Positions 205 through 33,100 of a stretch of 64,000 nt of DNA are shown piece by piece. The first letter of the stretch is position 1; every line of letters begins with the position of its first letter. Below the pieces are notes generated by a model that was given only the letters and a program-made list of their open reading frames with translations, made no database searches and had not been told where the DNA came from. Origin of the DNA: a virus. The position numbers and the translations under genes are program-made. The stretch lies in IMG/VR virus record IMGVR_UViG_3300044615_001997. One strand, 5' to 3'.

Positions 205-728
205 AATTAGAGCAAATTAAAGCACGCTTAGAAGAAAATTATTCTTATATCAGAAGCGTCATTCAACCAGGTTATGAATATCACCCTTCACCAAAATTTG
301 ATAAAGCTTTTATTAAAGCAAGCAAGTTTTGCAAAGACAACAATTTGTCACCGGAAGAATATGCCTATGGTTTGATGTATAGTTTGGAACTCGGAAGAAA
401 AGAATGCTTTTATCCTTCCTACTTTGGGTCTGCCACAGCCAATCAAGCTGTGCTCCAATACAAGAAAGAAAAAGCTATTGCTTACGAAGACTTACTAGAA
501 CATCAAAAAGACTTATTGTATATACAGATCAATAAGTTGGGGCGTGATTACAAAGCTGTTCTAATGGATCCCAGGTTAAAATTCCATGCCTGGTTCAGGA
601 TATTGGCTACTGCCAACCCCGAACCAGACATTATCAACAAGTATAGCGATACAGCCAGAGCTGAAATGACGCCTGAATTGTTGGCTTTTTTGAAACAAAA
701 CAACCTAGATCTAGATAGAATATTATGA
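183..728 (+). CDS. Hypothetical protein (181 aa)
   Basis: ORF overlaps the helicase start (ATGA-type coupling); no recognisable motif. Confidence 0.75.
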   Translation: MDTANSVELEQIKARLEENYSYIRSVIQPGYEYHPSPKFDKAFIKASKFCKDNNLSPEEYAYGLMYSLELGRKECFYPSYFGSATANQAVLQYKKEKAIAYEDLLEHQKDLLYIQINKLGRDYKAVLMDPRLKFHAWFRILATANPEPDIINKYSDTARAEMTPELLAFLKQNNLDLDRIL

Positions 729-2125
729 ATAAAAACTTATACGAAGATTCCGATTTCATTGAATTAGTCATTAAGCATATTGTTAGAGATAACAATATCT
801 ACAATTTGGCTAAAGCTTATGACTTCGGTATGGATGATGTTGGAAGTATAGATATATACAGGGCGTTCATCAAAATTGTTTTTGATGTAGGTGAAGTGCC
901 TATCAGCATTAACTTGTTCCTGCTAAAGATCAAGGAGGCTTACTTACACGGACTACTAAATCAAACACAGGAAAATCAAATACTCCAATTTCTTTACTGG
1001 ATCTATGATGAACAACCACTCGATTCAAAATATATCGAGGAGCATATTCCTAAAATGCTGAAGCATAGAAGAATGGGAGCCATCTTAAACTCAAAGGAAA
1101 AAGATTTCGACAAGATTGCACAAAATCTCAGTTCGTTGGCTTTTCAATTTGAGTCGGCTAAAGATTCTGAAGACGACACAGTGTTTTACCCATTCCTGAA
1201 CCCAGTGTTCAAAACAAAGCAAGAAGCCTATGGAACAGGATTTATGGAAATTGACGCAGTGGCAGCAGGCCTAACACGTCAGGAATTTGGCTTGATTATT
1301 GGATATTCTGGTTCGGGTAAAACTGCTGTGGCGGTACATTCAGCACTACAAAACGCACTCAACGGAGTTAAAGTGCTCTATATATCTCTTGAGGAGTCTT
1401 CTCCCAATATCTCAAATCGTCTCTATGCAAATTATTTTAATATAAATTATAGCGACCTTCACCACGTTAGAAACGGTGCCAATGCCGAACTGCAGAGCAA
1501 AATTTCAGAAATGAAACCTGAAGAGCTTGATGTTCTGAAAAATATCAGAATTGCCCCACTAAAAGACAAGGCTCCTGTTACTGTGAGGTTTATAAAAGAT
1601 TATCTAGACAACCTATATAAAACCGAAGGTTATGCGCCTGAGCTAGTATATATAGATCAGATGGATTATCTCGAACCTTCTGAAGATTGTGATGCTTCAT
1701 GGGAAAAATACTCCAAAGTTGCTTTCGAGGTAGACGATTTATCTAACCACCTCATTGGTGGGGAGAAGCCCTTCTCGTTATGGTTACTTCATCAAGCCTC
1801 TGGAAAAATGAAACGTTACTTCACCAATGCCGACATTTCGGGGTTTAAAGGAATTATTAAACCGGCTGACTTTGTTTTGGGTATTGGTAAAGATAAACCT
1901 GAAGATGAGACTGTTTCGCTGTTCTCCTTAAAATGCCGACATTCTAAAAATTTCACTTTTGATTACTTTGCTGACTTGGCCCATATGCGTTTTGGAGCCA
2001 TGAATAAGGGAGGCGAAGCAAGAATCAAAAAAGAAAAAGAAATGTTGGGGAAATCTACGAGACGCTCACACTTCAATACACCTAAACAACAAACATTACC
2101 ATCACCCGACGGTGCTTTTGATTAA
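725..2125 (+). CDS. Replicative DnaB-like (SF4) helicase
   Basis: Walker A GYSGSGKT, YISLEES, Walker B YIDQMD, LLHQ and LKCRH arginine-finger region. Confidence 0.9.
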   Translation: MNKNLYEDSDFIELVIKHIVRDNNIYNLAKAYDFGMDDVGSIDIYRAFIKIVFDVGEVPISINLFLLKIKEAYLHGLLNQTQENQILQFLYWIYDEQPLDSKYIEEHIPKMLKHRRMGAILNSKEKDFDKIAQNLSSLAFQFESAKDSEDDTVFYPFLNPVFKTKQEAYGTGFMEIDAVAAGLTRQEFGLIIGYSGSGKTAVAVHSALQNALNGVKVLYISLEESSPNISNRLYANYFNINYSDLHHVRNGANAELQSKISEMKPEELDVLKNIRIAPLKDKAPVTVRFIKDYLDNLYKTEGYAPELVYIDQMDYLEPSEDCDASWEKYSKVAFEVDDLSNHLIGGEKPFSLWLLHQASGKMKRYFTNADISGFKGIIKPADFVLGIGKDKPEDETVSLFSLKCRHSKNFTFDYFADLAHMRFGAMNKGGEARIKKEKEMLGKSTRRSHFNTPKQQTLPSPDGAFD

Positions 2126-2676
2126 TGCTATTTACTGACGACATACATTACTGTGCTAGCTACGTTCCAGAAAATTTTGAGTTTGTTGTTTTGGGTACCA
2201 CCCAAATACTCAGAGATATTCCAGAGCTAGCTTATCCTGTGGTAAAAGAAACTATCATTGGAGATAATAAATTCATATCACGTAGTTATGATGACGTTTA
2301 TTTAATACCCATAGCCTCTAGGTTGGAATACACCAAAGAGGCTATGGAAATCCCCCTAGAACTTAAATATGACGAATACAAGAAGCTCAAAGAGATAGAT
2401 TTAAAAGATTTTAAATTAGACGATGAGACTGAAACGTTATTAGTAAGATACCCGCTTTCATTCACTCCGGACGTTGATAAAGAAATAAAGCTTAAACTGC
2501 ACGAAGGCAAGTTATATAAACGAATTAAATTATCCGAAGATGGAACTATAATGAGCGATGATTGGGAATTAATACATCCCAACCACCCATTCATAAACTC
2601 ATTCATGAATGACATGGTGGAGGATATATTAAAAGAATTATCGCTCGGAGAACCACAAGACGAAAATGAATACTAA
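2125..2676 (+). CDS. Hypothetical protein (183 aa)
   Basis: Coupled ORF in the replication operon; acidic. Confidence 0.7.
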   Translation: MLFTDDIHYCASYVPENFEFVVLGTTQILRDIPELAYPVVKETIIGDNKFISRSYDDVYLIPIASRLEYTKEAMEIPLELKYDEYKKLKEIDLKDFKLDDETETLLVRYPLSFTPDVDKEIKLKLHEGKLYKRIKLSEDGTIMSDDWELIHPNHPFINSFMNDMVEDILKELSLGEPQDENEY

Positions 2677-3100
2677 AGAACAAACATTTACAATTAAACA
2701 ATTTGACACCTGCTCGAAGAGCTTTCCTACCGTTAAATTTGAAATGCCTGAATCTTCATCATTAGATGATGTCATCGAAGCATTTGAAGCATTCTTAATA
2801 GGTGTGACTTTCGAGCTGCCTAAAGGAGCCAGGCTAGGATTGGTATACGATGAGGAAACAGAAAGACAGAAGTTGGAAGAAAAATATGGTAAAGACGAAG
2901 ATAAAATTGACTCTGGAAAAGAATATCAAACATTAGCAGGAACTACACCTGATGGTGGAGGTTGGTCGATTTCTCATCCTGTGTGGTCGGAGTCTTTTAC
3001 TTATCCAACAACTCAAACACTCACCACTTCTACTCCAATAACACCAGCACCGGCAAAGACCGCTAAAAAAAAGAAGAGTAAAAAGAAGAAAAATAAATGA
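2666..3100 (+). CDS. Hypothetical protein with Lys-rich tail (144 aa)
   Basis: Coupled ORF with a Thr/Pro linker and KKKKSKKKKNK end. Confidence 0.7.
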   Translation: MNTKEQTFTIKQFDTCSKSFPTVKFEMPESSSLDDVIEAFEAFLIGVTFELPKGARLGLVYDEETERQKLEEKYGKDEDKIDSGKEYQTLAGTTPDGGGWSISHPVWSESFTYPTTQTLTTSTPITPAPAKTAKKKKSKKKKNK

Positions 3101-6100
3101 AAGCTAAATTAGCTATAGGACGTCGACTCACGGCGAGTGAAGATATTTTAAAATGCGAGATAGCTGAACTTCGCCATGAAACTGCAAAAAAACTTGGTTT
3201 GAAGGATCAGCATGGTCTGACTGGTTCAGATGAGTCTAGACTCGAGAAACATAAAGTTGGTGTTGGTGGAGAAATAGCTGCAGCTGCTTGTTTAAAAATT
3301 GAAAATTTTATTCCTGGCGAAGGAGGGTTCAAGAGAATTCCAGATATAAATCTTGTTTGGCGTGACGGTAAGTATGTTTATGACCCAAAACAAGACCACG
3401 GAGGTTTAGAAATCGAAGTCAGGACTTCTACCACACACGACGGAGCTCTTATTATAAGAGATAGCGATAGGAAATATGGAACTTCTAGACCCTTTATTCT
3501 CGAGACTTTTGAAAATGGTCAATATGTTATGCGGGGTTGGATTCCAGAAGGAAGGTTAGCTTTTCAAGATAAATATTATACAGACAACAACAATAATCGT
3601 ACTAAGGCATATTTTATGCCTCAAGAAGATTTATACCCCCTTGAATCGTTATATGAATTAGTAGGAATAAACGTTGAGGATGTATTATCTACACCAGGTA
3701 TAACAACCGGAGATACTGAAATAAAAGAAAAAGTACGTGTAGCTCCTCGTGGTAAGCGTGGAGCAAAGTACATGCTTATCTATTCGCATCCCGGCAAGGA
3801 CGATCTGCAATCTAAGATGTTTGGTTATGCTGGTTACGCTGCCGAAGAAACTATCGCAGCGTTAAAGTCTGTGGGAATTGACCCACAAGAATGTTATTTC
3901 ACTGGAATGGTTAAGGAGGGTATTGGTAACAAGCCCAAGCCCACAGCAGAGCAAATTGAAAAATGGGCGGCTGAACTTGACCAGGAGATAGAGATAATTA
4001 AACCTAAAATAATCATCAGCTTGGGTGCCGAAGTATTTAAGCGGGTGATGAAAACAAATATCAAGGTAGGAGACTACATTGGAGAAATTATAGATTCTCC
4101 GTATGGAAAGCTTCTAGCTAATTATTCTCCTGCTATGGTGGTTGTTCAAGACCCAACCAAACGACCCGAATTCCAAGATATATTTGAATTGGCTAAAAAA
4201 GCCGTAGAGAATAACTTGGAATACGACAAATATACTTACAAGGTAATTTCAGATCCTGCTGAAAATATAGCGGTATTGCAGAGTTACATCGACAGAGGTA
4301 TGTTTAGTATTGGTTATGACGCTGAGTGGTTCGGGGCTAAATTCACCGATGATGAGGTGATGTACGAATTTCAATATAGCTGCGAAAAAGACGTAGCCAT
4401 TATATTGAATATATCTCCTGATGGTAAAACAGAAAATCGTGAGCTGCTCAACACAATGAAGCTCATACTGGAGCATCCCAAAGCTGATAGGCTAGGATGG
4501 AACATCAGGGCTGATGACATTAGACTGGTTTATCGTGGGTTTAATCTCGCAGATGAAACTTTGGGGTTTGATGGAATGAAAGCTGTGGCTTTCTATGACT
4601 CTAGACTCGGTAAGGGATTAGAAACTGGGATTAAAAAATTTACAAATTATCCACCATATTATGTCCCATTTAATCGCAAGATGAAGGAGCATAAGCTGGC
4701 TAAAAATGAATTGGCAAAACTCAAGTTTTTTGAACCCGATGTTTATTATAATTATTGTGCTGGTGACGCCGTGGCTCATCGTGAAGCATGTTTAAATATG
4801 CGTGACGGGTTTCCACAGGAAGTCTGGCCATATTATAAAAACGTATACTTACCATTGACTAATTACTTCTTGGATATGGAGCTTACCGGTATTCCAATAG
4901 ATATGGATGTGTTGGAAGATATCACTGGAAAGTATATGTCTAAGTATGAAGAAATTAAGCTGGAGTTGGGGAATTTTCTAGAACAGAGCTATGGAATAAA
5001 GGAATTTAATCCTAACTCAGCTCTACAGAAAAAAGAGTTCTTGTTTAAAACTTTAGGGTTGAATCCTGCTTATTATACAAAAGCAGGTAAATCACCTAAG
5101 TCTAGGACATGGTGGGAGAGACAAAAGCCACAAACTCAAAAGTTATTCTCTCCTTCCACCAACGGTAAATCTCTATCCACAATTAAATTTGAATTGGAGG
5201 AAGAGATGGCTAAAAACAATTCCCAAGATCTAAAAAACGCACATCAGGCAATTAGTTTATTGTTAAACTTGAACAGAGTTAGTGTTTTTGCCAATAAGTT
5301 CTTGTCCAAGAAAGGTATAGTTGTGACTGAGGATGATGACGATGAACCACTGAAACAGAGTTATTGGGCGGCTATTTCTAAGGATGGGAGAATACATCCC
5401 AGCTTTTTTGAGTTGCTTAAAAACTTCAGATCTTCGAGTTCACCAAACGTACAGAATCCAGCTTCCAAGGTGTTGACTTACATTCCGGATATTTTTATCC
5501 CGGGATATAACAAACTAACTAAGGAGGAGCAATCACAACATGACTCCAAACTACCGGCAAACTTACGCAATATATTCTATCCAGGACATAAAGATTTTAA
5601 CTGGGTAGAGTTGGACATTGCTGGTGCTGACCTGGCTATTATGGCCTTCTTGAGTCAAGATCCTAACTTTATTGGTGACATTCGAGCAGGAAACTTCCAC
5701 CAGACTAAAATGAGGGAATACTTCCAGGATGAAACATTGAGCAAAAAGGACACGGCAAAGTATGTTATATCGAAAGGTATTACTTTCCGAGTATCGTATA
5801 CTGCAGGTCTTGATTTTGCTGCGATACCTATTCAGGCAGACATCTATGCTGAAAATGGACTACACGTTCCATTGCAGCTAATTGAGTTTGCGTTGGAAAC
5901 TTGGAAGCGTTATGAAACCTATATGCGCTATAGACAGCTCTGCAACCTTGAAGTACAAGAAAATAAAAGTATAACTTGTGCCAGAGGAATGCGACTCAAC
6001 TTTGAAGAAACAGATAATTTTGGAATTCTTGCCGGATGGATGAATGAAAGTTTAGCCTTTCCGGTAGCCTCAGAATTAGCTCTCTTCATGTGGGAAGCGT

Positions 6101-6390
6101 CTGTTAATGTAAGAAACTTGTTGAAACGCGAAGGCTTATGGATGCGCTGGATTTACCCTGTGAATGTGGTGCATGATGCCAATTACTGGATAGCTCACAA
6201 AGACTTGCTCAAGGGCAATTATCTTCCTGAGCTACTGAGAACAGTGTTTTGTAAAAGCACAAAAATTGCCACCGGCGATAACTTAGGCTGTGAATTAGTC
6301 GTGAGTGATCGTTGGAAAGGCAAAGAAAAAATATTCGAAAAAGAAACCGTTTGGAATAACGAACTTAATGAATGGGTTTGGAGTTCTTAA
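3097..6390 (+). CDS. Family A DNA polymerase with N-terminal PD-(D/E)XK-like domain, degenerate UDG domain and 3'-5' exonuclease
   Basis: ExoI YDAE, ExoII WNIRAD, ExoIII YCAGD; GRIHP..SSSPNVQN; motif A LDIAGADL; motif B SKGITFRVSY; motif C VVHDA; UDG-like IKPKIIISLG. Confidence 0.9.
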   Translation: MKAKLAIGRRLTASEDILKCEIAELRHETAKKLGLKDQHGLTGSDESRLEKHKVGVGGEIAAAACLKIENFIPGEGGFKRIPDINLVWRDGKYVYDPKQDHGGLEIEVRTSTTHDGALIIRDSDRKYGTSRPFILETFENGQYVMRGWIPEGRLAFQDKYYTDNNNNRTKAYFMPQEDLYPLESLYELVGINVEDVLSTPGITTGDTEIKEKVRVAPRGKRGAKYMLIYSHPGKDDLQSKMFGYAGYAAEETIAALKSVGIDPQECYFTGMVKEGIGNKPKPTAEQIEKWAAELDQEIEIIKPKIIISLGAEVFKRVMKTNIKVGDYIGEIIDSPYGKLLANYSPAMVVVQDPTKRPEFQDIFELAKKAVENNLEYDKYTYKVISDPAENIAVLQSYIDRGMFSIGYDAEWFGAKFTDDEVMYEFQYSCEKDVAIILNISPDGKTENRELLNTMKLILEHPKADRLGWNIRADDIRLVYRGFNLADETLGFDGMKAVAFYDSRLGKGLETGIKKFTNYPPYYVPFNRKMKEHKLAKNELAKLKFFEPDVYYNYCAGDAVAHREACLNMRDGFPQEVWPYYKNVYLPLTNYFLDMELTGIPIDMDVLEDITGKYMSKYEEIKLELGNFLEQSYGIKEFNPNSALQKKEFLFKTLGLNPAYYTKAGKSPKSRTWWERQKPQTQKLFSPSTNGKSLSTIKFELEEEMAKNNSQDLKNAHQAISLLLNLNRVSVFANKFLSKKGIVVTEDDDDEPLKQSYWAAISKDGRIHPSFFELLKNFRSSSSPNVQNPASKVLTYIPDIFIPGYNKLTKEEQSQHDSKLPANLRNIFYPGHKDFNWVELDIAGADLAIMAFLSQDPNFIGDIRAGNFHQTKMREYFQDETLSKKDTAKYVISKGITFRVSYTAGLDFAAIPIQADIYAENGLHVPLQLIEFALETWKRYETYMRYRQLCNLEVQENKSITCARGMRLNFEETDNFGILAGWMNESLAFPVASELALFMWEASVNVRNLLKREGLWMRWIYPVNVVHDANYWIAHKDLLKGNYLPELLRTVFCKSTKIATGDNLGCELVVSDRWKGKEKIFEKETVWNNELNEWVWSS

Positions 6391-8479: not shown

Positions 8480-8737
8480 ATGGACAGAAAATACACAATC
8501 AAAATCTCGGATAACACCGGACATACAGAGCTCTTGGAGCAAACGACAAAACAAACCGTTGATGCTGTGATGGAGAAAGTTTCGAGCCATGCCCACTGGG
8601 TCTGGATCGATGGTCAACTGTTCGAGTTCGAGCAGGGAGATATCAACTCCAAAGCCAACGCCGATAAATTGGCTGCTCGTCTCGAAACTGCCAATGACCC
8701 CACAGTGGTCTTGTCAGGTACCCTCATCGGGGGTTAA
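8480..8737 (+). CDS. Ubiquitin-like (ThiS/MoaD/Urm1-type beta-grasp) protein with C-terminal di-glycine
   Basis: 85 aa; pattern YTIKIS / HTELLE / helix / WVWIDG / TVVLSGTLIGG-stop; JAB and E1 genes lie downstream. Confidence 0.7.
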   Translation: MDRKYTIKISDNTGHTELLEQTTKQTVDAVMEKVSSHAHWVWIDGQLFEFEQGDINSKANADKLAARLETANDPTVVLSGTLIGG

Positions 8738-8760
8738 TCGAGTCTAGAAGACTTAATCAA

Positions 8761-8794
8761 GAAGGGGGAGCTTCGGCTCCCCCTTCTATTTATT
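8761..8794 (+). terminator. Intrinsic terminator after the Ubl gene
   Basis: 11-bp stem GAAGGGGGAGC/GCTCCCCCTTC, cUUCGg tetraloop, TATTTATT tail. Confidence 0.8.
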
Positions 8795-8810
8795 GCTAAC
8801 CCATACACTT

Positions 8811-10874
8811 ATGAATATATCTACCAAAAAATTCAATTCCTTTGTAGACGAGTATAGTAAAGTTAAAAAATTCGTTACCGAAGGCAATGTAGTGATACGC
8901 GAAGATTGGAGCAAGCGTAATTACAACAAGCCAAACAACAACGAAGATGAAGTATATTCTATACACTACGAGAACTTAAAATTTAAAAATCTATCTAACG
9001 CACATAAATTTACTCAAGTTAGCAGAATCAATGGAAACCCAAAAATACTAACCGTAGAAAATAAAAAAGATCCTAACTCTCCAGAAGTTAAGATAAAAGA
9101 GTCTATCGCTGGCAATCTCTCAGCGGGGTCGTTACTGATGGTTACTACTGCAACCGCACAAAATTTAGCCAAAGATTATAAATCTATGCGGTTTATTCCC
9201 AAAACTGATCTAGATAATAAGCTCAAGTTTCCAAAAATTATTTCAAAGCCACCGTACGAGATAATGGAGGGAAATAACACCTATCGTGTGCTTTGTCGTT
9301 CTGGTTACGGTATTTATTTTATCGGTTGCGACACTGACGACATTTATGATTACCTCGATGAAGGATTCTTCATTTTAGGTATAACCGGAGTAACGCCTTC
9401 AGGTAAAAAGAATCGACACATGGTTGTAACGAACCAGTTGGATATCAATACCATGCATATTTTTATCCTGTGCCAGTTCCAGCCGAAGTTTTGTGAAATG
9501 TTACATAAAGGATGTTTTGTCCACACTAATGATGCACAAATGATGCGTCTTAAAATGGAAAAGAAACTTCCGGAAAAATACAAAACTAAGTACGAGCATG
9601 CCCGTGAAGCCATTGAGAAAGACTATCAAAACAACACCTCACTGATTCTTATTAATAACCTAAATAATAAAGAAATCGCCAAGGTGGCATTGAATGATAT
9701 CGAGCTCACCAGTAACTCGGCCTCTTACGACAGAATCAAAATAGAGGCAGACGACCTCCTGAATGTAATCTATTCAAAGGTTAACTTTGGTGGCGAGTTT
9801 GATATTTATTCTGTGGTAGAAACTTATGCCGACCACATTCAAGAAAAAGTGGACGGAGCTCAATTGCCTGAAGAAGGGCAATTTAGAACTCTACCTACCA
9901 TAAAGATCAATGGTTTTAACATTAATATAACCACATCACATACCGGTGTACGTAGAATTAATGGAAAGCGTATCAATAAAGCAGAAATTAAGGATGCCGT
10001 CTACCGAGCTAGTTGTCATCATACTCAAGAAGATTACGACTTATTCTTAAATCGTATCTCGAGAATGAGCTTATTGTGGCACGATATTCTGGCAAATGGC
10101 TTACCTGTTAAAATTCACGACAACATGACGTGGGATGAGTATAGGGAGCCAGAACCATCTGCCGCCGCTCCGGCAATTAAGTTCTTTATCGATAAAGAAG
10201 ATCGTTGCATCAAGATTAAAACCGAGGATCCTAAAGGTTGCCGTGTTCGTTTAGGGCAACTAATTAAGAAAATCGATACAATCAATCGTAAAACAAATAA
10301 TCGCTGGACGCGTGGTGGTATGGAGAGCCGTAACAGTAGGTGGGCCAGAAAAGAGCTAGCTAAAGCCTTGAAAGAGGCCACCACGTTTGATGTTAAAACC
10401 AAGCGGGAAGACGGAACTGTAGAGACTCGTTCTGTTACAGGTATAACTGCAGCAGACATCACAAAGCTGATTCAAATAGCAGATGAATACAAGAAGGCAG
10501 CTATCGAGAGAAGCAAAAACTTCCTCGCTACAGCTGTTCAATTCACGGGTGCAAAAGAAATTGAATTTATGGGTAAGCAAGCCTATAAAGTTGATGGAAC
10601 GTTGCGTTCGTATGCTGTAGTTATAGAAACTGCCAAGGTGTATGACTATCAGACAAAACAGTATCGTTGTATCGTAAACGACAACCATTTCCGTGGTGCA
10701 GGTTACGACGACATTGCCGCTAGACTATATGCACTGAAGAATGACTCAGTTATGCAGAAAGTGATTGGAACATTGAAGGGTGCCGCTCAGCCAGGAGCTG
10801 AGAATGCACACAATGACTATGTTCCTGACCGTGCAGTAGATGACGCCGTTCTAGAAGGATTAAATCTAGATTAA
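8811..10874 (+). CDS. Large hypothetical protein (687 aa) between the Ubl and JAB/E1 genes
   Basis: Long ORF with likely ATG start at 8811; C-terminal segment VDGTLRSY...YRCIV...ARLYALKND. Confidence 0.8.
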   Translation: MNISTKKFNSFVDEYSKVKKFVTEGNVVIREDWSKRNYNKPNNNEDEVYSIHYENLKFKNLSNAHKFTQVSRINGNPKILTVENKKDPNSPEVKIKESIAGNLSAGSLLMVTTATAQNLAKDYKSMRFIPKTDLDNKLKFPKIISKPPYEIMEGNNTYRVLCRSGYGIYFIGCDTDDIYDYLDEGFFILGITGVTPSGKKNRHMVVTNQLDINTMHIFILCQFQPKFCEMLHKGCFVHTNDAQMMRLKMEKKLPEKYKTKYEHAREAIEKDYQNNTSLILINNLNNKEIAKVALNDIELTSNSASYDRIKIEADDLLNVIYSKVNFGGEFDIYSVVETYADHIQEKVDGAQLPEEGQFRTLPTIKINGFNINITTSHTGVRRINGKRINKAEIKDAVYRASCHHTQEDYDLFLNRISRMSLLWHDILANGLPVKIHDNMTWDEYREPEPSAAAPAIKFFIDKEDRCIKIKTEDPKGCRVRLGQLIKKIDTINRKTNNRWTRGGMESRNSRWARKELAKALKEATTFDVKTKREDGTVETRSVTGITAADITKLIQIADEYKKAAIERSKNFLATAVQFTGAKEIEFMGKQAYKVDGTLRSYAVVIETAKVYDYQTKQYRCIVNDNHFRGAGYDDIAARLYALKNDSVMQKVIGTLKGAAQPGAENAHNDYVPDRAVDDAVLEGLNLD

Positions 10875-10878
10875 CTTA

Positions 10879-10913
10879 TAGAGCCCCTGTAGGCAAATCC
10901 TACAGGGGCTCTA
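10879..10913 (+). terminator. Perfect 15-bp hairpin (terminator or RNA-processing site)
   Basis: TAGAGCCCCTGTAGG-CAAAT-CCTACAGGGGCTCTA with no clear U-tract. Confidence 0.6.
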
Positions 10914-10939
10914 ATACATAAACTTAAACAAATAATTAA

Positions 10940-11590
10940 ATGAAAACATATATTATAGACATTGAAACTGCTCCATTACCTCAAAACCAAATAGAGGCAT
11001 TTCAGCCAGAATTTAAAGCCGATACTCGTTTGAAAGACCCTATAAAAATAGCGGAAGATATTAAAAATAAAAAAGAAAAGTTTATAGCTAACGCTGCTTT
11101 AAATCCTCTTACTTCGTATATTTGTGCTTTGGGTGTTTGGGAAACTTCTCAAAAAGAACCTGAGTTATATATCTCTAATAGCGAAAAAAATATCATTGAA
11201 GCATTTTTAGAGTTAATCAAAGAAGAAAATTTAACCAGAACAAGAATAGTGACATTTAATGGAATGAACTTCGATATTCCGTTTTTATGTCGAAGAGGTT
11301 TACTCTATGGTCACGATATATTCCCAACATTCTATAGAATAGATGGATGCTTTAAAATTTTAGATAAAGCTCCGGTATTTATAGACTTGGCTGCTATATG
11401 GGATTGCCGTAGAAAAGACTATATTAGTTTGAATGACTTAGCTATCTATATGGGGGTAGGTAAAAAAAATAAGAATGAAGATCTTTTTTATCAATTGCTA
11501 GAAAAAAATAAAGATGTCGCTAAGGATTATTTAATTAATGATTTAAAATTAACTAAAGATATAGCAGAAAAATGGGGATTAATTAAATGA
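10940..11590 (+). CDS. DEDDy 3'-5' exonuclease (PolB-exo-like, standalone)
   Basis: IIDIET, TFNGMNFDIPFL, FIDL, YLIND. Confidence 0.85.
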   Translation: MKTYIIDIETAPLPQNQIEAFQPEFKADTRLKDPIKIAEDIKNKKEKFIANAALNPLTSYICALGVWETSQKEPELYISNSEKNIIEAFLELIKEENLTRTRIVTFNGMNFDIPFLCRRGLLYGHDIFPTFYRIDGCFKILDKAPVFIDLAAIWDCRRKDYISLNDLAIYMGVGKKNKNEDLFYQLLEKNKDVAKDYLINDLKLTKDIAEKWGLIK

Positions 11591-12048
11591 GATTAATAGA
11601 AAAAATAAATAAGGGGTTAGCTAGAGCTGTAGCTACGGCTACAGTGGAATGCGGTGACTCTAAAGAAGAAGAAGGAGGGATTATTCTCACTAATAATCAA
11701 TCTTCAGGAGCTAGAGATTATAAATTTATAAAAGTTATAAACGACCGACGTGGAACACTCTCTGCTCGAGGACTATATGTGGCAAACCCTGAAGATTTTG
11801 GAAAGCATGTATTTCCATCAATTTCTGAAGGTTGGAATATGTATGCAAGTTTTCATACTCATCCCACCTTTTCAGCTACACCTAGTTCTCTAGACGAAGA
11901 TAAATTATTCAGAGGATTTAAATATAATTTTATATTTTCTAACTCTGAAAGGACTGTATCGTGTTCGGAGTGGTCTCCGCAAAACGATTTGCATACTGTG
12001 TATTTAAACATTATAACCTTACTATACTTAGCTAATGAGCAAGATTAA
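11587..12048 (+). CDS. JAB/MPN+ (JAMM) metallo-isopeptidase
   Basis: EEEGGIIL, then exact HxH-x7-S-x2-D motif HTHPTFSATPSSLD. Confidence 0.85.
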   Translation: MRLIEKINKGLARAVATATVECGDSKEEEGGIILTNNQSSGARDYKFIKVINDRRGTLSARGLYVANPEDFGKHVFPSISEGWNMYASFHTHPTFSATPSSLDEDKLFRGFKYNFIFSNSERTVSCSEWSPQNDLHTVYLNIITLLYLANEQD

Positions 12049-12631
12049 AAAAATTGGTATTGCCGGTGCCGGTGGCATTGGATCAAATTTACTGGCTATA
12101 TTATTTGATTACGGTTTTAATCGTAAGCAATTTGACTATTCTTCTGTGGATGTTGATATATACGATGATGATGTGGTAGATCTAAAAAATCTACTACATC
12201 AAAACTTCAAGATGGAAGATATCAGCAAGTACAAAGTAAAAGTTCTTGAAGATAAATACGTTGTGAAGGGCATCACTAAATTCATGGATGAAAAAGACTT
12301 TAAGAAATATGACGTTATTTTCAGCTGTGTAGACAGTATGGAATTTAGACGTAAGCTCTATAACTATGGCTTTGAAAATAAAACCAAGCCGTTTTGGATT
12401 GATGGTCGTTGCACTAGTCGTCAAGGGGCTATCTTCAACTCTGATGTTGCTGAAACTGAACTAAAAAAATATATTACCGAAGACGATATTCGTGGAGGCT
12501 GCCTCCTAAATTACGAGAAAGAACAAAACATAAGCCATACTATCCCGCTTGTAGTGGCAGGAATGATGGTACAAACATTCTTGAATTTCTTGCGTGGTGA
12601 AAAGACCGACAAGAAATTATTTATGGTGTGA
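12035..12631 (+). CDS. ThiF/MoeB/E1-like adenylyltransferase
   Basis: IGIAGAGGIGS, YDDDVVDLKNLLHQ, KYKV, SCVDSMEFRR, WIDGR, candidate catalytic Cys in GGCL. Confidence 0.9.
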   Translation: MSKIKKIGIAGAGGIGSNLLAILFDYGFNRKQFDYSSVDVDIYDDDVVDLKNLLHQNFKMEDISKYKVKVLEDKYVVKGITKFMDEKDFKKYDVIFSCVDSMEFRRKLYNYGFENKTKPFWIDGRCTSRQGAIFNSDVAETELKKYITEDDIRGGCLLNYEKEQNISHTIPLVVAGMMVQTFLNFLRGEKTDKKLFMV

Positions 12632-18102: not shown

Positions 18103-19395
18103 ATGAACATTATATCTGAAAATACACAAGAATTATTCTGCTATCACAAGACACGCTGTAATGCATTAAAAGAAATAGGTGAAGAAGGCAGAGACCTTTT
18201 TATATATTTAGCACATAACGTATTAGAACATCATTCTGATTTTTTAAATTATACTGAAGAGCCTATATTTATAGGTGGTTTATTAGATGGATTTAGTGGC
18301 AAAGATCAATCAAATATGTGTAAAGCTTTATTAATGGCGTTGCATCAACACGGTTTTTGCGTAGAAAATATGGTTTTAGAAGAATTTTTATATAGATTAC
18401 TTTATGCTGACTTTACTTTTGTGTTGGATACCGTATCTCACGCTGAAGATGAAGACAGATTAGAACTTGTTAAACCTTGGGCTAGATTGTTAGCAATTAT
18501 AGAAAATAAGCCTGGTTTAATGATTCCGACTGAAGAAGATTGGGATTCGTGTTTTGAACCTGCGTTATTTTGGGATGACGATTTTCACTTTTTTAATAGT
18601 CTCTATGATTCTGGTTGTTTGGGGTTAAAGGCTATACAAACAATTAAAAAAGAGTTAGAAATTTTTGAAAATTTAGATGTAGCTAGAATGATAGTCGAAC
18701 CGGAAGATTTATGGAACGACTATAAATTTGATAAAAAAGACATCAAAGAAGCTAAACTTAATAGTTTGATAAAAAAGAAAAAACTAGAATTAACTGAAAA
18801 TCAAACATCTAAAAATGCTGAAAAAGGATTAAAATATATTTCTCCTTCTTTATACCAAGATAGAGACGACTGGTTTTTTGCTATAGTGGCTAAAGGTAAA
18901 TCTCAAGTTAAAAAAGATTTGAATACACGAGATTTAAAAACAGCTCAAACAAATTTGTTAAAATATGTTGCGTCTTTAGGTAATAAATGTAGATCTGAAA
19001 AAGAGGAAATTCCTGCAACTAGCTCGCCGCCTAAAATAAAGAAACCTAAAATCTACGAAGGACTGGTTTATTGTATTAAAGATCAGTCAGGTAGACTTAA
19101 AATAGGTGAAACTTCTAGACACATAGTGAAGCGTTTAAAAGCATTACAAACAAGCAATCCAGATAAATTAGAAATTTGTTTTACTATATACGTAGCTAAT
19201 AGACTAAACGCAGAAAGACAAATTCACCACGAACTTAAAGCATTTAAATTAACTGGCGAATGGTTTAATTGTTCTTTAAATGAAGCTTTCTGTGCTTTTA
19301 AAAAAATAGAAAATGCCAAATGGATTCAAAATGACACCGAATATAAAACAACAACTGAAGAAACAAATAAGGAAGTTGAAGATTGGGCGGCGTAA
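18103..19395 (+). CDS. Protein with C-terminal GIY-YIG-like (T5orf172/MUG113) domain
   Basis: LVYCIK...LKIGET...RLKALQTSNP...AERQIH..LK....GEWF. Confidence 0.75.
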   Translation: MNIISENTQELFCYHKTRCNALKEIGEEGRDLFIYLAHNVLEHHSDFLNYTEEPIFIGGLLDGFSGKDQSNMCKALLMALHQHGFCVENMVLEEFLYRLLYADFTFVLDTVSHAEDEDRLELVKPWARLLAIIENKPGLMIPTEEDWDSCFEPALFWDDDFHFFNSLYDSGCLGLKAIQTIKKELEIFENLDVARMIVEPEDLWNDYKFDKKDIKEAKLNSLIKKKKLELTENQTSKNAEKGLKYISPSLYQDRDDWFFAIVAKGKSQVKKDLNTRDLKTAQTNLLKYVASLGNKCRSEKEEIPATSSPPKIKKPKIYEGLVYCIKDQSGRLKIGETSRHIVKRLKALQTSNPDKLEICFTIYVANRLNAERQIHHELKAFKLTGEWFNCSLNEAFCAFKKIENAKWIQNDTEYKTTTEETNKEVEDWAA

Positions 19396-20225: not shown

Positions 20226-21224
20226 ATGAAATTAGCATCAATAGAAACAATAACAGATCTGATACACCATCCCAATGCCGATAAACTAGACATTGTTAAA
20301 GTTTTGGGTTGGCAGGCGGTGGTGCAACGTGACGAATTTAAAAAGGGGGACAAGGTGGTGTTTGTTGTGATAGACACTATCCTACCCAGAGCCCCCTGGT
20401 CAGAGTTCTTGGCAGACTCCAAGAAACCTGATGCACCTATAAGACTCAGAACTGCCAAGATAAGAGCATCCTATTCACAAGGCCTTGTTCTTCCGCTCTC
20501 AGTCCTACCTGAAAATATTCAGGGATGGCATGAGGGTGCTGATGTTGGTGGAGCCCTCGGAATTAAAAAATACGAGAAAGAGATCCCTGCACAATTGTCG
20601 GGTGAAGTACTCGGTGGATTCCCCGGTTATATCTGTGCACAAACCGACGAGGACAACGGGCTCTCCAATCCTGAGTTAGTTGAGGAGGTGCTGCGTAACA
20701 AATGGATCACAGTTACTGAAAAATACGATGGGAGTTCTTGCACCATAATTATCGAAGACAAAAAGATAACACATGTTTGCAGCCGGAGACTTTCCTTAAA
20801 AGAAACAAATGAAAACGCTTTCTGGAGAGTTGCTAGAAAACTTGATTTGAGTAAAATTAACAATGAGCGTTATGTAATCCAGGGAGAACTAATGGGTCCA
20901 GGTGTTCAAGGAAATCAGTTGAAATTGATGGAGCCAGAACTCTATGTTTTTCAAATCAGCCGAAATAATTCATTCGATAGTTATTTAAATATGGTTTGGG
21001 CATGTCGTAATATGTTTAACTGCAAATATGTTAAGCATATAAGTAATTTCGATACGTCTGCAGGCAAGGTAGACCTAGACTTCCTACAGGGCCTGGCTGA
21101 TGCGAGAACATTACCTGACGGTAAACCTGCTGAAGGAATTGTTGTTAGACCTCTAGACTACAGGAGTGCTGGTAACGGTAGACCTCTCAGCTTTAAGATA
21201 ATGAATAGAAACTACGTAGATTAA
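20226..21224 (+). CDS. RNA ligase (DRB0094/Rnl2-like, with N-terminal OB domain)
   Basis: HPNADKL, SQGLVLP, motif I TEKYDGSS, QGELMGPG, YVFQI, EGIVVR, SFK. Confidence 0.9.
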   Translation: MKLASIETITDLIHHPNADKLDIVKVLGWQAVVQRDEFKKGDKVVFVVIDTILPRAPWSEFLADSKKPDAPIRLRTAKIRASYSQGLVLPLSVLPENIQGWHEGADVGGALGIKKYEKEIPAQLSGEVLGGFPGYICAQTDEDNGLSNPELVEEVLRNKWITVTEKYDGSSCTIIIEDKKITHVCSRRLSLKETNENAFWRVARKLDLSKINNERYVIQGELMGPGVQGNQLKLMEPELYVFQISRNNSFDSYLNMVWACRNMFNCKYVKHISNFDTSAGKVDLDFLQGLADARTLPDGKPAEGIVVRPLDYRSAGNGRPLSFKIMNRNYVD

Positions 21225-27135: not shown

Positions 27136-30100
27136 TCAATTAACTTTTATATTTATAAACGCCGAAGCATCGAAACGATTGTTTTCACAATAAACACAAA
27201 CTCTGTATGTTCCTGGGGCAGAAATTGTTCCTGAAATTTTTCCTGTGGTGGCATCAATACTTAGCCCAGCTGGAATGTTTAATATATACCACCCGGTAGG
27301 TACACCGACATAGGTGGGAGTAAACTCAAAAGGAGTACCAGCAGCGACTATTACAGTTTGTTCAGGATTAATTTTAAGTAAACTTGTAATGGCTGCCACA
27401 ATTATCTTTATTTTTTCACTACTAGCGCCATAACTGTTTTCAACTTTTATCTCACAATCTACCCCACCAGCAGAGGTAGCTTGCGTAGGTGTTCCGCTTA
27501 TTGTGCCTCTTAAAGTATTTAAAGTTAGCCCTTGAGGCAGTGGAGTCAACGCTGCCCATTGTGTGGGAGGAGTTCCTCCAGCAGATGAAAAAGCTATACT
27601 GTATGTTATAAAATTAGCTGTTGATAAATTTATAACTTGATTGGGGGTGATAACGGGTACTTTAGACAATATATTAATTTTTATACTAGCGCTTCCAGAA
27701 ATACCGCTTACGCCCGTAGCAGTAACTACGCCTGTATATTCTCCCGCTATTCCAGGAGTTCCTGAGATTACGCCGGTATTAGATATAGTTAATTGAAGAG
27801 AGGTAGGAAGATTTGTTAATTGCCATGAAATTGGATTTCCTTGTGTACGTACTGTAGCTGTAAACGGATCTAAAGCATAGCCATTAAAGCTTTGTCCGGG
27901 GCTTACAACTATAGCTGGCTCATCTACCGCTACAGTGATATTTTCTTCGTCACTTCCGTCTTGATTCCCTGCAAAAATACGAATGGTTCTACTACCGCTA
28001 TATACTGTAGGAGTACCAGATAGCGCACCAGTAGAACCATTTAATATTAAGCCTGCAGGTAATTCACCAGACACTATCCTCCACTCCGTCACATTTCCAG
28101 AAAATGTTATATTTCTAGAAAATGGTGAATTTAATGTAGCTCTGAATATTTGTCCTTGCGCAATATTAGGAGCATTAACACTTTCTGTAATTTGAAAATT
28201 AATTGTTGCAGGTGCGCTATCGCCAGCAGAATTTGAGGCTATTAATTGTGCAGATGTATTTCCTGCGGTTGTTGGAATCCCAGACAAGTAACCATTTCGT
28301 CCGTCTAGCGTTATCCCGGGATGTAGTAAGGTTTGTGCTGTGGCTAATCTCCAATTTATAGGTGTACCGCCGCTATTTAAAAATCCTATAGTGTAATTGA
28401 AATTAACTCCCTTTCTTCCGATAAATGTTTGATTTGGTGTTATAACCGGAATCAAGGTTGAGCTGGCTACGATAATAGTTATTTCAGCAGTATCACTACC
28501 TGACTCATTTTCTACTCTAATTATTGTTGTGAATGTTCCTGTGGCTGAGGGAATTCCAGATATGGTTCCTACTATCGCACTTAGCGAAGTCCCAGAAGGT
28601 AGAGAATTGTTCGGAATATTATCAACTAACCAATTTGTGATAGTACCTGTGGCTTCGAGTTGAAAGCTAAAGTGAGCTCCTCTGAACGCATTTATAGTTT
28701 GATTATTTATAACAGGCGGAATAACGGAAGACACAACATTTATGGCTAAAGTTGTAGTAGCACTTCCGGCAGAATTACTAGCTGTAACTGTAACAGTTTT
28801 ATTTTCTACTGCAGAAGGTCTTCCGGAAATTGTTCCTGAGTTAAAATTAACAGACAGTCCTTGCGGTAAATTAGAGGCTGCCCACGCTGTAGCTATTCCT
28901 CCAGAATTTACAAAGTTATAAGGAGTCATGTTGACGTTTCTAATCAATTGTATCGGGCTGAGATTTTGTTCTAATACTGGTAATTGCGTGGTTGGTGAAG
29001 TCACTGTGATGGAAACAGTTTCAGTATCTGTACCTGCCGAATTTCTTGCAGTTATTATAGCATTAAATACTCCTGCTGTTAGAGGTCTTCCTTGAAGTCT
29101 GCCTGTATTTCCGTCCATACTAACACCGCTTGGCAAATCTTGACTTGTTAGTGTAACCCCAGACCCAGTAAAAAGTATTGTTGCATTTGTTGTGATAGTT
29201 GTATTTAGTGTGAATGTAAAAGTTTGACCGGCCGTTATTTGTGGAATTGTGACAGGTTGAGTTATTATAAACTCCACAGCTCCGGTGCTACTACCTGCAC
29301 TATTGGAAGCTGTTATATTACTTGATGTGGTTGTGGCGGCAGCATTTAAAGTTCCTGATATTTGACCTGTGGTTGTAGCGATAGCTAATCCTTGAGGTAA
29401 CCCCGTAGCTGTCCAGCTTGTAGCCGTTCCACCAGTTGTTTGGACGAAGAGGTTGCTTACTTGCTGCCCTGTCACTAAATTAAACTTTTGTCCTGAGGGT
29501 ATTTCGGGTTTTATAACTCCCTGAGTAATCGTTATTGTGACATTGACTGTAGGGGAGCGCCCCTTACTGCTTTCGGCAAATATACCGACAATAAAAGTAC
29601 CTGCAGTTGTTGGTTTTCCTGTAAATCTACCTATAGATAACGAAAAAGTTAATCCTGGGGGTAGCTGTGTGGGTATAGGTAAACCCCAAGTGATAGGTGT
29701 GCCTCCTGTAAAAGCTACCGTAAACTCAGCATCATTAGATGCAGTTCCTGTAAATGTTTGATTAGGTGTTATTACAGGTATTTCCGCCGATACAACTAAA
29801 GCCACGAATGCGCTAGAAGTATTTCCAAAGTTAGTTAAAGTTACTCTTATGTTATAATTACCTGCAGGAGGTGTGGTTCCTGACAGTCTTGCTGGATTAA
29901 AAAATAGTTGTACTCCGGCTGGAGCAAACTCCAAAGTACCGCCGGTAGGTGTTCCACCGGTGGTGGCGATATTTCTACCAAAACTACCGGTCCCCTCCGT
30001 TAAATCAAAAATTTGGTTAGGTGTTATTGTTATTGGCTCATCTTTAATTATAAATTTAACTGGCACATTTCCAGTAGAGCCAGATAAATTTGATGCGCTG

Positions 30101-33100
30101 ACATTGTGGGATGTTTCTCCCGTTGTTGCTGGGGCTGTTCCTGTAAAAGTATAAGCTGCGGGATTAAAAACTATTCCCGAAGGTAAAGTTGAGAAAGATA
30201 TGCTTGTTGGTGTCTCGCCTAAAACATTAAGTTTGTCGGTTCCTGGTAGTGTTGTACTTTTAACAAAAGAAAAAGATTGATTGTCTGGGATAATTGGTCT
30301 TCCATCAGATACAATTATTGTAATTGAAGACGTATCTGTCCCTGTACCATTCGAAGCTATTAAGTCAAAATTATATACTCCACTAGTTGTGATTGTTCCA
30401 GATATAGTGAATCCGTTAGCGGATTGTACTACTGAAACTCCTTGAGGAAGATTCACACTAAATTCATAGTCATCTATTGCACCACCAGCATTAATCAAAT
30501 TAAATGTAAAAGGAGTATTTAAGTTAGCTCGAATTATAGCGTTGCTTAGGTTAGGTGCAGCTGTACCCCCACCACCACCATCATCATCTGAAAATACATC
30601 TATAGTTATTTCACATTCGTTAGATACTATATTTTGTAGTCTAGCTAAAACATTAAAAGAAAAAGAACCGGTTACTAATGGAGTACCTACAATTTCGCCT
30701 AACGGAGTAATAGAAAATGGTCCTGCGTTACCACTACTAATTTCCCATGTAGCTGGAATTTCGCCTTCCAAAGGAATGTCGACAGAAAACGGTAAATTGA
30801 CTTCTGCGGTTAAATCTAGAAAACTGGGTATCTCTATAAAGTTTAACCCTACGTTTATGGTGTATGTCTTGGTGGTAGAAAAAGCGGGAACTATTTCATG
30901 CTCGGCAGTTATAATGACCGTATATACTCCATTGGGTACATTAGTGATACCTGTAATTAATCCACCGGAAATTGTTCCTGTGTTCATGTCCATTGTAACA
31001 GCTGTGGTCATACTTAATCCTGCAGGTAAAGGACTATTTAATACCCAACGTGTAGGAACATCTTGAGTATAAGTTAATTGAACACTGGCGGACCTACCTC
31101 TAACAACATTAATTGTGATATCGGATAATTGTATTTTTCTAAATATTACTATCCAATTAGCTAAAGCAGAATACTCAAAATCTTCTCCAACTTGAGCCGT
31201 TAAATAAAATTGACCTTGTCCTTGTTCTGTAGCCAATCCTCTTATTATACCGGTAACAGGATCTTGAGTAATTCCAGTCGGCAATCTAAAGTTTCCTGAG
31301 TTTGCGGGAGGTACCCAACCAGTTAAAATGCTTGGATCGTTGACAGCTGCCATTAACCCAGGCATCCATCTACCCTGAGCTACAAAAGATTGATTCGGAA
31401 CGACATAAAAATCTTGAGTTCCTTCTACGACTGTAAACTCTTCCGACTTAGTCAAAACTATTCCGCTCGTGTTATATGCTGTAGCTGTAACATTATAGGT
31501 TCCTACTTGAGTAGGAGTACCTTGAATACTCGTATTGGTTGAATTAAAGACCAGTCCAGGTGGAAGATTTGCAAAAAGTAAACTTGTAATATTTCCACTT
31601 ATCGAGATAACTAGGGGAGTTATTGTTATAAATTTAGGAAAAACAGGATTTACCGGCATTGTAAAATCAATAGCATCTACTATTGTGATACGGAAAGTTT
31701 GTTCTACATAACTAGAATAAACATAAACTCTAATTACGACTTGGTGGATACCGGAAGATTCTGCTACACCCAGTATAACTGGTTGATCGCCGCTGGGGTC
31801 ATCCCAATAAAGTCCGCTGTCTTCCAATCCTGTCACTGAAATATCTGTCCAATTAAAATTACCAGAAATTAATATAGGTATAGGTGTTATGTCTGTACCT
31901 AAATTATAAGTTTTATTATCTATCTCTTCTACAGTTAAACCTAAAAGTATCTTAAAATAAAAACCATCACTAATGTAATCATCACCGTTCCACAAACGGA
32001 CGGTCACTCTGGCACCATAATAATCATTTTCAGTCATTTCTAAAAATGTTCCAGAGATTGTTCTTGTGGTTTCATTGTAAGTCAAGCCGTCCGGTAAATC
32101 AGCTAGATTTGGTATAGATACTTTTGTGCATGGGGTTGGTCCGGATGTTTCTAGAACAAGCGAAGACAAAGTAGTGCCTAAAAGATAAGTTAATGCAGAG
32201 TTGGTAACATCTAGTGTTATCTTGACTGTAACTGTTATGGTAAATGATACAGTTCTAACAAGTCCACTGAACGTAGTGACAGTTATTGTTACCGTTGTAC
32301 CGTTCCATGGATTGACTTCTGTTGGTGTTCCTTCTATATATTGCCGATCTCCCTCATTAACTAAATCTAATCCTGGCGGTAAAGTATCAGCGGTTATTGT
32401 ATCTACTTGTGTTGCTTCTCCGATATATCGGAACACTATAGGAGTCATGGGAGCACCTTTAGCTAAAGTCGTGTTTTGAGGTGTTATTACTTGGAAAAAT
32501 TCTACGATTGTGAGACTGAATGTTTCTGATAACGCAATTCCTCCAGGCGCAGTAAAAGTTATGGTGGGATTGAAGTTACCAAAAACAGTAGAAGAACCTG
32601 ATATTTGCCTAGTGCTTGCATTATATGTAAAAGTTCCTGCAGGGAAACCAGATAAACTCGCTGTTAGTGTTAAATTTAAATTAGTTAGCACCAGTGGTAC
32701 AGCTATTGAAAATTGTTGATTTTGATTAGCTGTGACTGGTGAAATTTCACCTATTGAAAATCCTGGATCTACGAATAGTTCAAATGCCCTAGATATTTCT
32801 TGACCATCTAGGTCGACTGCCACTAGAGTAATTTCGAAATTGCCGGGAGCTGTAGGTGTGCCATATATTCTTAAAGATGTGGGATTTCCACATTCACCTG
32901 TAATACCTTCCCAATCCATCCCGTTGGGCAGGTCATAAGCATATAACTCTAATCCCCAATCGCAAACCTCTCCCTCCATATCTGCATAAATTTCTATAAA
33001 CTCTCCTAAAGAATATTCGAAACTTCCTAATTGTGGAGCATCTATATTTAAAGTAAAATTTAAATTTAACTCTAATGTTCCAGAATTGCTTGTTGTTGGT

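Follow-up and report, generated by a model that had tools for sequence, protein, structure and literature searches.

We analyzed a 64,000-nucleotide stretch of viral DNA (IMG/VR record IMGVR_UViG_3300044615_001997, here called the window) that encodes a 1097-residue protein, P0001, in which a family A DNA polymerase (PolA) is fused to a domain resembling uracil-DNA glycosylase (UDG). P0001 and its relatives form a clade that matches none of the described groups and constitutes a new subfamily among the UDG-fused PolAs. In this clade a set of PolA active-site residues has been replaced, and the replacement is a real, ancient and strictly conserved change. Our preferred reading, to which we give a probability of about 0.6, is that P0001 replicates the genomes (~165-235 kb) of a large uncultured phage lineage.

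The open reading frame (ORF) at 3097-6390 consists of four parts. An N-terminal domain is followed by a family-4 UDG-like domain that has degenerated, a 3'-5' exonuclease that is intact, and PolA. Among the PHROGs, phrog_17, a DNA polymerase family, matched residues 218-1083 of P0001 (E = 2e-38), and an unannotated family matched residues 11-188. The Pfam model for family A polymerases, PF00476, matched residues 760-902 at 32.4 bits, against a curated cut-off of 34.3. Since the Pfam PolA model misses the enzyme at its curated threshold, these phages are likely to be annotated with a UDG and not with a polymerase.

Equivalence to Klenow and fixation of the changes

A single-sequence phmmer search of the PDB with P0001 matched only UDGs and did not find the polymerase, and a profile was therefore needed for the comparison. 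The profile, built from 20 homologs, matched Klenow at E = 8e-14, with a polymerase stretch that spans motifs A, B, 6 and C. When the clade profile was aligned by hhalign with residues 324-928 of Escherichia coli Pol I (polA taken from NC_000913.3), the probability was 98.6% and the E value 1e-15 over 502 aligned columns. An AlphaFold2 (AF2) model of residues 385-1097 had a mean predicted local distance difference test score (pLDDT) of 83.9. The best Foldseek matches of this model were Klenow and the Bst large fragment (E = 7e-23 to 1e-17, template modeling score up to 0.8), with Klenow 8oo6 at the top (E = 7e-23, template modeling score 0.79). A MAFFT alignment with canonical-motif outgroups gave the same residue pairing as the other three comparisons. 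As modeled, the Klenow-type fold, with exonuclease, thumb, palm and fingers, is present in P0001. An earlier note on this DNA had paired the residues with Klenow by eye. The motifs that it quoted (DIAGADLA, AFPVAS, HDA, the NFR region and motif B) were all found in their places, and its pairing was upheld by the profile, hhalign, AF2/Foldseek and MAFFT comparisons; proper alignment did not restore the canonical residues.

The catalytic aspartates are kept, D840 corresponding to D705 and D1027 to D882 of Klenow, and both are invariant in the clade. Also kept are K893, F897 and Y901 in the O-helix (K758, F762 and Y766), R778 (R668), H868 (H734), H1026 (H881) and Q786/N787 (Q677/N678). The earlier statement that the catalytic aspartates, K758, F762, Y766 and all three exonuclease motifs are intact is thus borne out by the alignment and by invariance within the clade. 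The changes, in Klenow numbering, are Q708G, E710D, R754Y, G763R, G767T, R841N, N845A, Q849A, E883A, T666N and G667F, of which R841N and Q708G had been missed before. The PolA motif B pattern R-x3-K-x3-[FYL]-x3-Y-G was not matched, with Tyr for the Arg and Thr for the last Gly and with the K, F and Y present. Motif 6 reads N....A...A instead of R....N...Q, and NFR stands in place of TGR with the Arg retained. Local pairing of TGR with an upstream DGR by hhalign is an artefact; in the outgroup alignment NFR corresponds to T666-G667-R668.

A search of a large protein index gave 192 relatives; those listed were 53-100% identical to P0001, mostly ~900 amino acids long and encoded on JGI, ENA, NCBI and Logan contigs as long as 236 kb. 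Motifs were counted in 133 clade proteins. Motif A as D[VI]AGADL occurred in 117, motif B as Y...K...FR..YT in 125, motif 6 as N....A...A in 115 and motif C as VHDA in 127, and NFR was the TGR equivalent in 123. The exonuclease motifs DxE, Nx3D and Yx3D were invariant across the clade. Almost all of the substitutions were fixed clade-wide, in proteins down to 39% identity.

In a HMMER search against 1.84 billion representatives, the clade formed a handful of 50%-identity clusters. Full-length clade members scored at E = 1e-211 or better and fragments down to 1e-39, and the next proteins began at ~1e-34, so that a gap from 1e-211 to 1e-34 separates full-length members from all other representatives. 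These next proteins are other uncultured UDG-PolAs of ~900-1000 amino acids with TGR, DYxQAEL, RxxAKxxxFGxxYG and NFPIQ. The nearest non-clade representatives have Glu at E710 (95/95), Arg at R841 (79/80), Asn at N845 (80/80), Gln at Q849 (78/78) and Gly at G763 (89/98). When the first position of motif B in the relatives was recounted with the motif as anchor, 101 of 109 had Arg and 5 had Tyr. The five with Tyr are UDG-PolAs with otherwise canonical motifs, which argues that Tyr at the R754 position is tolerable. We rejected an hmmsearch column count, by which ~25% of relatives appeared to lack R754, as alignment bias from a Tyr-containing profile.

Comparison with these relatives and among clade members narrowed three of the changes listed in the earlier note. 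The steric-gate change E710D is found in P0001, but Glu is kept in the deep clade members P0123 and P0124. The change from HDE to HDA is real but not special to the clade, Ala being present in 50 of 63 nearest non-clade relatives, and R754Y holds for P0001 and the clade but, as the five relatives with Tyr show, is not unique to it. On sequence grounds, the changes that are truly clade-specific are the loss of R841, N845 and Q849, the pair G763R/G767T, and the replacement of TG by NF. Residues K871 and R873 are basic and conserved within the clade, not in relatives.

In a maximum-likelihood tree the clade formed one branch with an SH-like approximate likelihood ratio test (SH-aLRT) value of 100, a stem of 2.27 substitutions per site and short internal branches; its placement relative to Klenow is unsafe, as long branches meet there. 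It was along this one long stem branch that a set of otherwise near-universal PolA residues changed, and the new residues have stayed fixed since. The clade has no named relative: among 50,697 phage records searched by tblastn with P0001, the only matches were T5-like Vibrio phage polymerases, with 23% identity in the exonuclease region. For the relative P0139, the best cultured match was Bacillus phage Nachito, at 25% identity over 95% of the P0139 length.

A full-text literature search found no description of the clade. Three UDG-PolA groups have been described, namely N4-like, SPO1-like and SP15-like (PMC10201439; 10.1101/2025.03.26.645540; PMC13697223), together with two further divergent phage PolAs, divPolA1 and divPolA2 (PMC11348598). 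The N4-like UDG-PolA (cluster #17 in PMC10201439) shares with the clade a dead family-4 UDG-like N-terminus followed by exonuclease and polymerase, a core of ~900 amino acids, Phe at motif B position B3 and, probably, the role of a phage replicase. However, no N4-like phage was among the 57 tblastn matches of P0001 at E up to 1e-5, N4-like genomes are ~70 kb against ~200 kb in the clade, and N4-like enzymes keep the canonical residues of TGR and of motifs A, B and 6 (PMC10201439). In that study (Czernecki et al. 2023), the motif residues are strictly conserved in all 19 clusters.

The SPO1-like and SP15-like enzymes share the UDG-exonuclease-polymerase fusion and a short C-terminal beta extension after motif C, and the nearest non-clade relatives of P0001 resemble SPO1-type enzymes. 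They differ in having active UDG motifs (E53 and H178 in phiLo), whereas the UDG here is dead, and in belonging to phages that combine 5-substituted uracil with a canonical pocket, whereas the pocket here is rewired. The SP15-like enzymes, at 1175-1306 amino acids, also carry two large inserts (Insert 1 and Insert 2) and a C-terminal domain of ~80 amino acids that are absent from the clade, whose core is ~900 amino acids with only ~25 residues after motif C. With Klenow and the Bst large fragment the clade shares the fold, the catalytic Asp pair, K758, F762, Y766, R668, H734, H881 and the exonuclease motifs, but identity is 18%, and the clade polymerase has the extra UDG-like domain, to which P0001 adds its own N-terminal domain. 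The divPolA1 and divPolA2 enzymes (Virol J 2024, PMC11348598) are likewise highly divergent phage PolAs from genome mining, and divPolA1 occurs in genomes of 155-190 kb, a size similar to that of the clade genomes. However, they have no active exonuclease, their thumb is truncated or missing and a regular polymerase is found alongside, whereas in the clade exonuclease and thumb are intact and no other polymerase was found. With clade-fixed substitutions, monophyly and no fitting group among the described enzymes, the undescribed PolA clade that the earlier note had offered as its second reading is supported.

Accessory domains and the replication module

Compared with solved family-4 UDGs, the UDG-like domain has YSHPG (3781-3795) for GE(A/G)PG, TG for TN and YSPA (4120-4134) for HP(A/S). 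The catalytic Glu of UDG motif A, the Asn of TN and the His of UDG motif B are all replaced, in P0001 and throughout the clade; judged by these residues, the domain is catalytically dead. In cryo-electron microscopy structures of SP15-like enzymes, the UDG domain sits in front of the active site on the single-stranded 5' template, and the authors suggested a strand-displacement or processivity role where UDG catalysis is lost. The dead UDG domain of P0001 probably also lies on the 5' template strand, where it would serve as a guide or add processivity, in line with a proposal made for N4-like enzymes.

The N-terminal domain belongs to an insertion of ~1.6 kb (window 2125-3696) relative to all 22 related loci. 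The insertion comprises two small ORFs between DnaB and the polymerase (2125-3100) and a domain of ~200 amino acids fused in frame; neither the domain nor the two ORFs occurred in any of the 22 loci. One ORF encodes 183 amino acids with a weak match to a SwaI-like restriction endonuclease (E = 0.014), and the other encodes 144. The insertion is not an assembly error, because an independent ENA contig, 100% identical over the polymerase region, carries it too, with the same N-terminal fusion. Pfam gave no match to the domain at E up to 1, a word-index homolog search among shorter proteins gave nothing, and an AF2 model from four sequences (pLDDT 53) was too poor for use. Stand-alone homologs of 153-167 amino acids were found in other phage contigs; in the unrelated high-GC phage contigs L024 and L026 a C5 DNA methyltransferase is encoded two genes upstream of them. 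The insertion could be a mobile nuclease-type cassette. The N-terminal domain is probably a recent, phage-specific addition to the polymerase.

Gene content was analyzed in five related IMG/VR genomes of 166-204 kb (G001-G005). One of the five, G001 (IMG/VR 3300044646_001937), is complete with terminal repeats, and completeness is at least 93% for another two. Each of the five genomes has exactly one PolA-like ORF, and neither PolB nor DnaE was found in them. Among 144 ORFs of the complete relative that were scanned with Pfam, there was likewise no other polymerase. The gene order DnaB, UDG-PolA, GP88-like protein, large Cys protein, JAB and E1 is kept in those related loci long enough to show it. 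In 21 of the 22 related loci (L001-L022), the polymerase is followed within 0-2.5 kb by the GP88-like gene, the exception, L016, ending ~700 bases downstream of the polymerase; the homologs of the GP88-like protein in cultured phages come from Mycobacterium and Streptomyces phage genes that carry no annotation. Across the related loci, identity is 52-75% for the polymerase against 32-53% for DnaB.

The conserved gene order, together with the better conservation of the polymerase than of DnaB, indicates an essential, working enzyme. Since it is the only recognizable DNA polymerase in the five genomes and is encoded inside a conserved replication module, the P0001-type enzyme is probably an active replicase. 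The earlier remark that this looks like a working enzyme is in this sense supported as probable, the catalytic aspartates and exonuclease motifs being intact in the sole polymerase detected.

Proposed mechanism and alternative explanations

We propose that P0001 would carry out ordinary two-metal nucleotidyl transfer by D840 and D1027, with the incoming deoxynucleoside triphosphate stacked on F897 and Y901. The triphosphate would no longer be held by the equivalents of R754 and Q708 and would probably be bound instead by K893 and H868, along with clade-specific basic residues. Candidate substitutes for R754 and Q708 are K871 and R873, which lie in helix N one turn after H868, and R898, beside F897. 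Asp or Glu at the steric gate would still exclude the ribose 2'-OH, and the primer-side minor-groove contact would be retained via R778. Helix Q, having lost R841, N845 and Q849, would no longer read the template-strand minor groove. With this trio gone and the O-O1 hinge glycines replaced, template handling near the nascent pair would be remodeled, and with the template-side contacts lost, error control would lean more on the exonuclease.

Few enzymes have been studied as thoroughly as the family A polymerases. R754, R841, N845 and Q849 are treated as fixed nucleotide-binding and fidelity parts of PolA, and a widespread lineage under strong purifying selection, apparently with no back-up polymerase, does without them. 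If active, the enzyme would be a natural experiment in alternative triphosphate binding and nascent-duplex checking by PolA, and a possible scaffold for minor-groove-modified or unnatural nucleotides.

Several points weigh against a replicase working in this way. In Klenow mutagenesis, Ala at R754, Q849 or R668 reportedly costs much activity, and an unaided canonical mechanism should therefore be badly impaired. Basic residues at the K871 and R873 positions were no commoner in the relatives scored as lacking R754, a scoring that is biased by the alignment. The TGR region of the AF2 model has a pLDDT below 50 and is unreliable. The PF00476 score of P0001 is below the gathering threshold, and its relatives score lower still (23.6-26.8 bits). 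Finally, the Pfam scan covered ~60% of the complete relative, and a very divergent second polymerase could escape it.

The alternative that survives best, although we consider it unlikely, is the one raised by the earlier note in more general form: a non-canonical base, altered on its minor-groove or Watson-Crick edge, which the changed pocket allows the polymerase to copy and incorporate. R841, N845 and Q849 contact the template-side minor groove, and it is these contacts that are uniquely lost. A Cys-rich GP88-like protein adjoins the polymerase, dCMP deaminase is present in five of five related genomes, the complete relative has a T4-gp1-type dNMP kinase (these two being the only nucleotide enzymes in the 144-ORF scan) and it also has several glycosyltransferases. 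However, the proposed adaptation to a modified base found no positive support. ThyA-type hydroxymethylase, PurZ (PF00709), TGT/DpdA and trimeric dUTPase were absent from all five related genomes, and ThyX in one of the five implies ordinary dTMP. At ~60-97 kb of G001 (L029-L031), the three or four glycosyltransferases fall into one batch of scanned ORFs with three collagen-repeat proteins, a Methyltransf_24 enzyme and a polysaccharide pyruvyl transferase. This grouping is consistent with decoration of proteins or glycans and is probably a set for glycosylation of collagen-like virion fibres.

The nucleotide composition also argues, weakly, against a modified base. No 4-bp palindromes are more depleted genome-wide than CGCG (observed/expected ratio 0.35 in the window, 0.54 in G001) and GGCC (0.45 and 0.64), and palindromes of A and T only are not depleted in the window or in G001; the depletion weakly suggests that C/G sites are exposed to restriction. 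Moreover, dozens of long contigs were obtained from routine metagenomes, unlike hypermodified genomes, which resist sequencing, and known base-modifying phages keep canonical PolA motifs. In published structures, C5-modified bases need no change in the PolA active site, because they sit in the solvent-exposed major groove.

DpoZ, the PolA of 2-aminoadenine phages, is the analogy that the earlier note had drawn, as a phage PolA lineage tied to genome chemistry. Its motifs are canonical except for a Phe at B4 (Y766F), and it co-occurs with PurZ, whereas the clade keeps Tyr at B4, has no PurZ in the five genomes and is changed at other residues. As DpoZ differs mainly by Y766F and C5 modifications need no pocket change, the analogy is weak. 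We regard it as distinctly unlikely that template-side minor-groove reading and the canonical gamma-phosphate Arg were lost because an unrecognized pathway, possibly involving the GP88-like neighbor, modifies a base of the clade genomes at its minor-groove or pairing edge; if this is the case, the enzyme would be the first PolA specialized for such DNA.

As a separate observation, no ribonucleotide reductase was found in the scanned part of G001, and the nucleotide-metabolism set of G001-G005 is unusual and minimal for a 200-kb phage.

The enzyme might also be no replicase at all but a crippled or specialized polymerase, used in repair, in lesion bypass or as an exonuclease/helicase scaffold, with the host replisome copying the genome. 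The loss of several residues important for Klenow activity and the Pfam score below the cut-off would fit such a role, and the divergent phage PolAs divPolA1 and divPolA2 are considered accessory. However, the searches of these ~200-kb genomes turned up no second polymerase, the gene adjoins DnaB in the conserved module, and the catalytic aspartates, K758, F762, Y766 and all exonuclease motifs are strictly conserved, unlike in divPolA1 and divPolA2, which have no active exonuclease and coexist with a regular polymerase. We therefore consider this role improbable.

Still less credible is divergence in an arms race, in which the polymerase escaped a host defence or inhibitor that recognizes it and the active-site changes are by-products. 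The very long stem followed by stasis would agree with this, and defence systems aimed at phage polymerases have been put forward in the literature as a driver of polymerase replacement, but the fixed changes cluster at buried substrate-contacting positions and not at surfaces, and no defence context was identified. Least probable of all is a uracil-DNA phage, with deoxyuridine (dU) for thymidine, a UDG domain inactivated for that reason and a drifted pocket: dCMP deaminase in five of five genomes, the dNMP kinase, the lack of dUTPase and ThyA, ThyX in only one of five, the dead UDG domain and an Rpb2-domain match in the complete relative (known uracil-DNA jumbo phages have multisubunit RNA polymerases) would agree with it, but dU explains none of the substitutions, because canonical PolAs use dUTP readily, one relative has ThyX, and the host thymidylate synthase can supply dTMP.

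Feature coordinates and other genes of the window

The polymerase, its domains and motifs, and the two neighboring genes of the replication module are listed in Table 1.

Table 1. Positions in the window of the polymerase ORF, its domains and motifs, and adjoining genes
Feature	Position	Strand	Evidence or remark
DnaB-like replicative helicase	725..2125	+	Pfam and PHROG matches; upstream of the polymerase in 22/22 related loci
Whole polymerase ORF, P0001, 1097 aa	3097..6390	+	N-terminal domain, UDG-like domain, 3'-5' exonuclease, PolA
N-terminal domain, ~200 aa, phrog_18407	3097..3696	+	PHROG E = 1.7e-13; no Pfam match
Family-4 UDG-like domain, catalytically degenerate as judged by its motifs	3739..4176	+	Pfam PF03167, E = 6e-10 (residues 219-360)
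3'-5' exonuclease domain, Exo I, II and III intact	4294..4896	+	Clade invariance, Klenow alignment
Exo I, DAE	4318-4326	+	D408/E410 = Klenow D355/E357
Exo II, NIRADD	4501-4518	+	N469...D473 = Klenow N420/D424
Exo III, YCAGD	4753-4767	+	Y553...D557 = Klenow Y497/D501
PolA polymerase domain (thumb, palm, fingers), with C-terminal extension of ~25 aa	4897..6387	+	Pfam, hhalign, AF2/Foldseek
TGR motif region, NFRSSSSPNVQN	5422..5457	+	R668, Q677 and N678 equivalents kept; T666N, G667F
Motif A, DIAGADLA	5614..5637	+	D840 = D705 kept; Q708G, E710D
Helix N, HQTKMR	5698..5715	+	H868 = H734 kept; K871 and R873 basic
Motif B / O-helix, YVISKGITFRVSYT	5761..5802	+	K758, F762 and Y766 kept; R754Y, G763R, G767T
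Motif 6 / helix Q, WMNESLAFPVASEL, contains AFPVAS	6037..6078	+	R841N, N845A, Q849A
Motif C, VHDA	6169..6180	+	H881 and D882 kept; E883A
GP88-like Cys-rich protein, PF17338	6500..7378	+	E = 2.9e-30

Downstream of a 693-residue protein, the window encodes a JAB peptidase (PF14464) and a ThiF/E1 enzyme (PF00899), a phage ubiquitin-like module at 8480-12631; the JAB, E1 and 693-residue proteins are conserved wherever a related locus reaches that far. A stand-alone 3'-5' exonuclease of 216 amino acids, of PolB type with an RNase H fold (PF03104, E = 1.4e-8) and no polymerase domain, is encoded at 10940-11590 and is present in some relatives only. At 18103-19395 lies the gene for a 430-residue protein with a T5orf172/MUG113 (GIY-YIG-type) C-terminal domain.

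An RNA ligase is encoded at 20226-21224. Together with this ligase of the window, a PNKP-type kinase/phosphatase and a DNA ligase encoded in G001 suggest an RNA/tRNA repair set. On the minus strand, 27136-41688 is a single ORF of 4850 amino acids, the C-terminal 1500 of which contain repeats matching a tail-protein PHROG. Beyond it lie giant ORFs of 1587, 1789 and 1163 amino acids with tail-fibre and Ig-like repeat matches.

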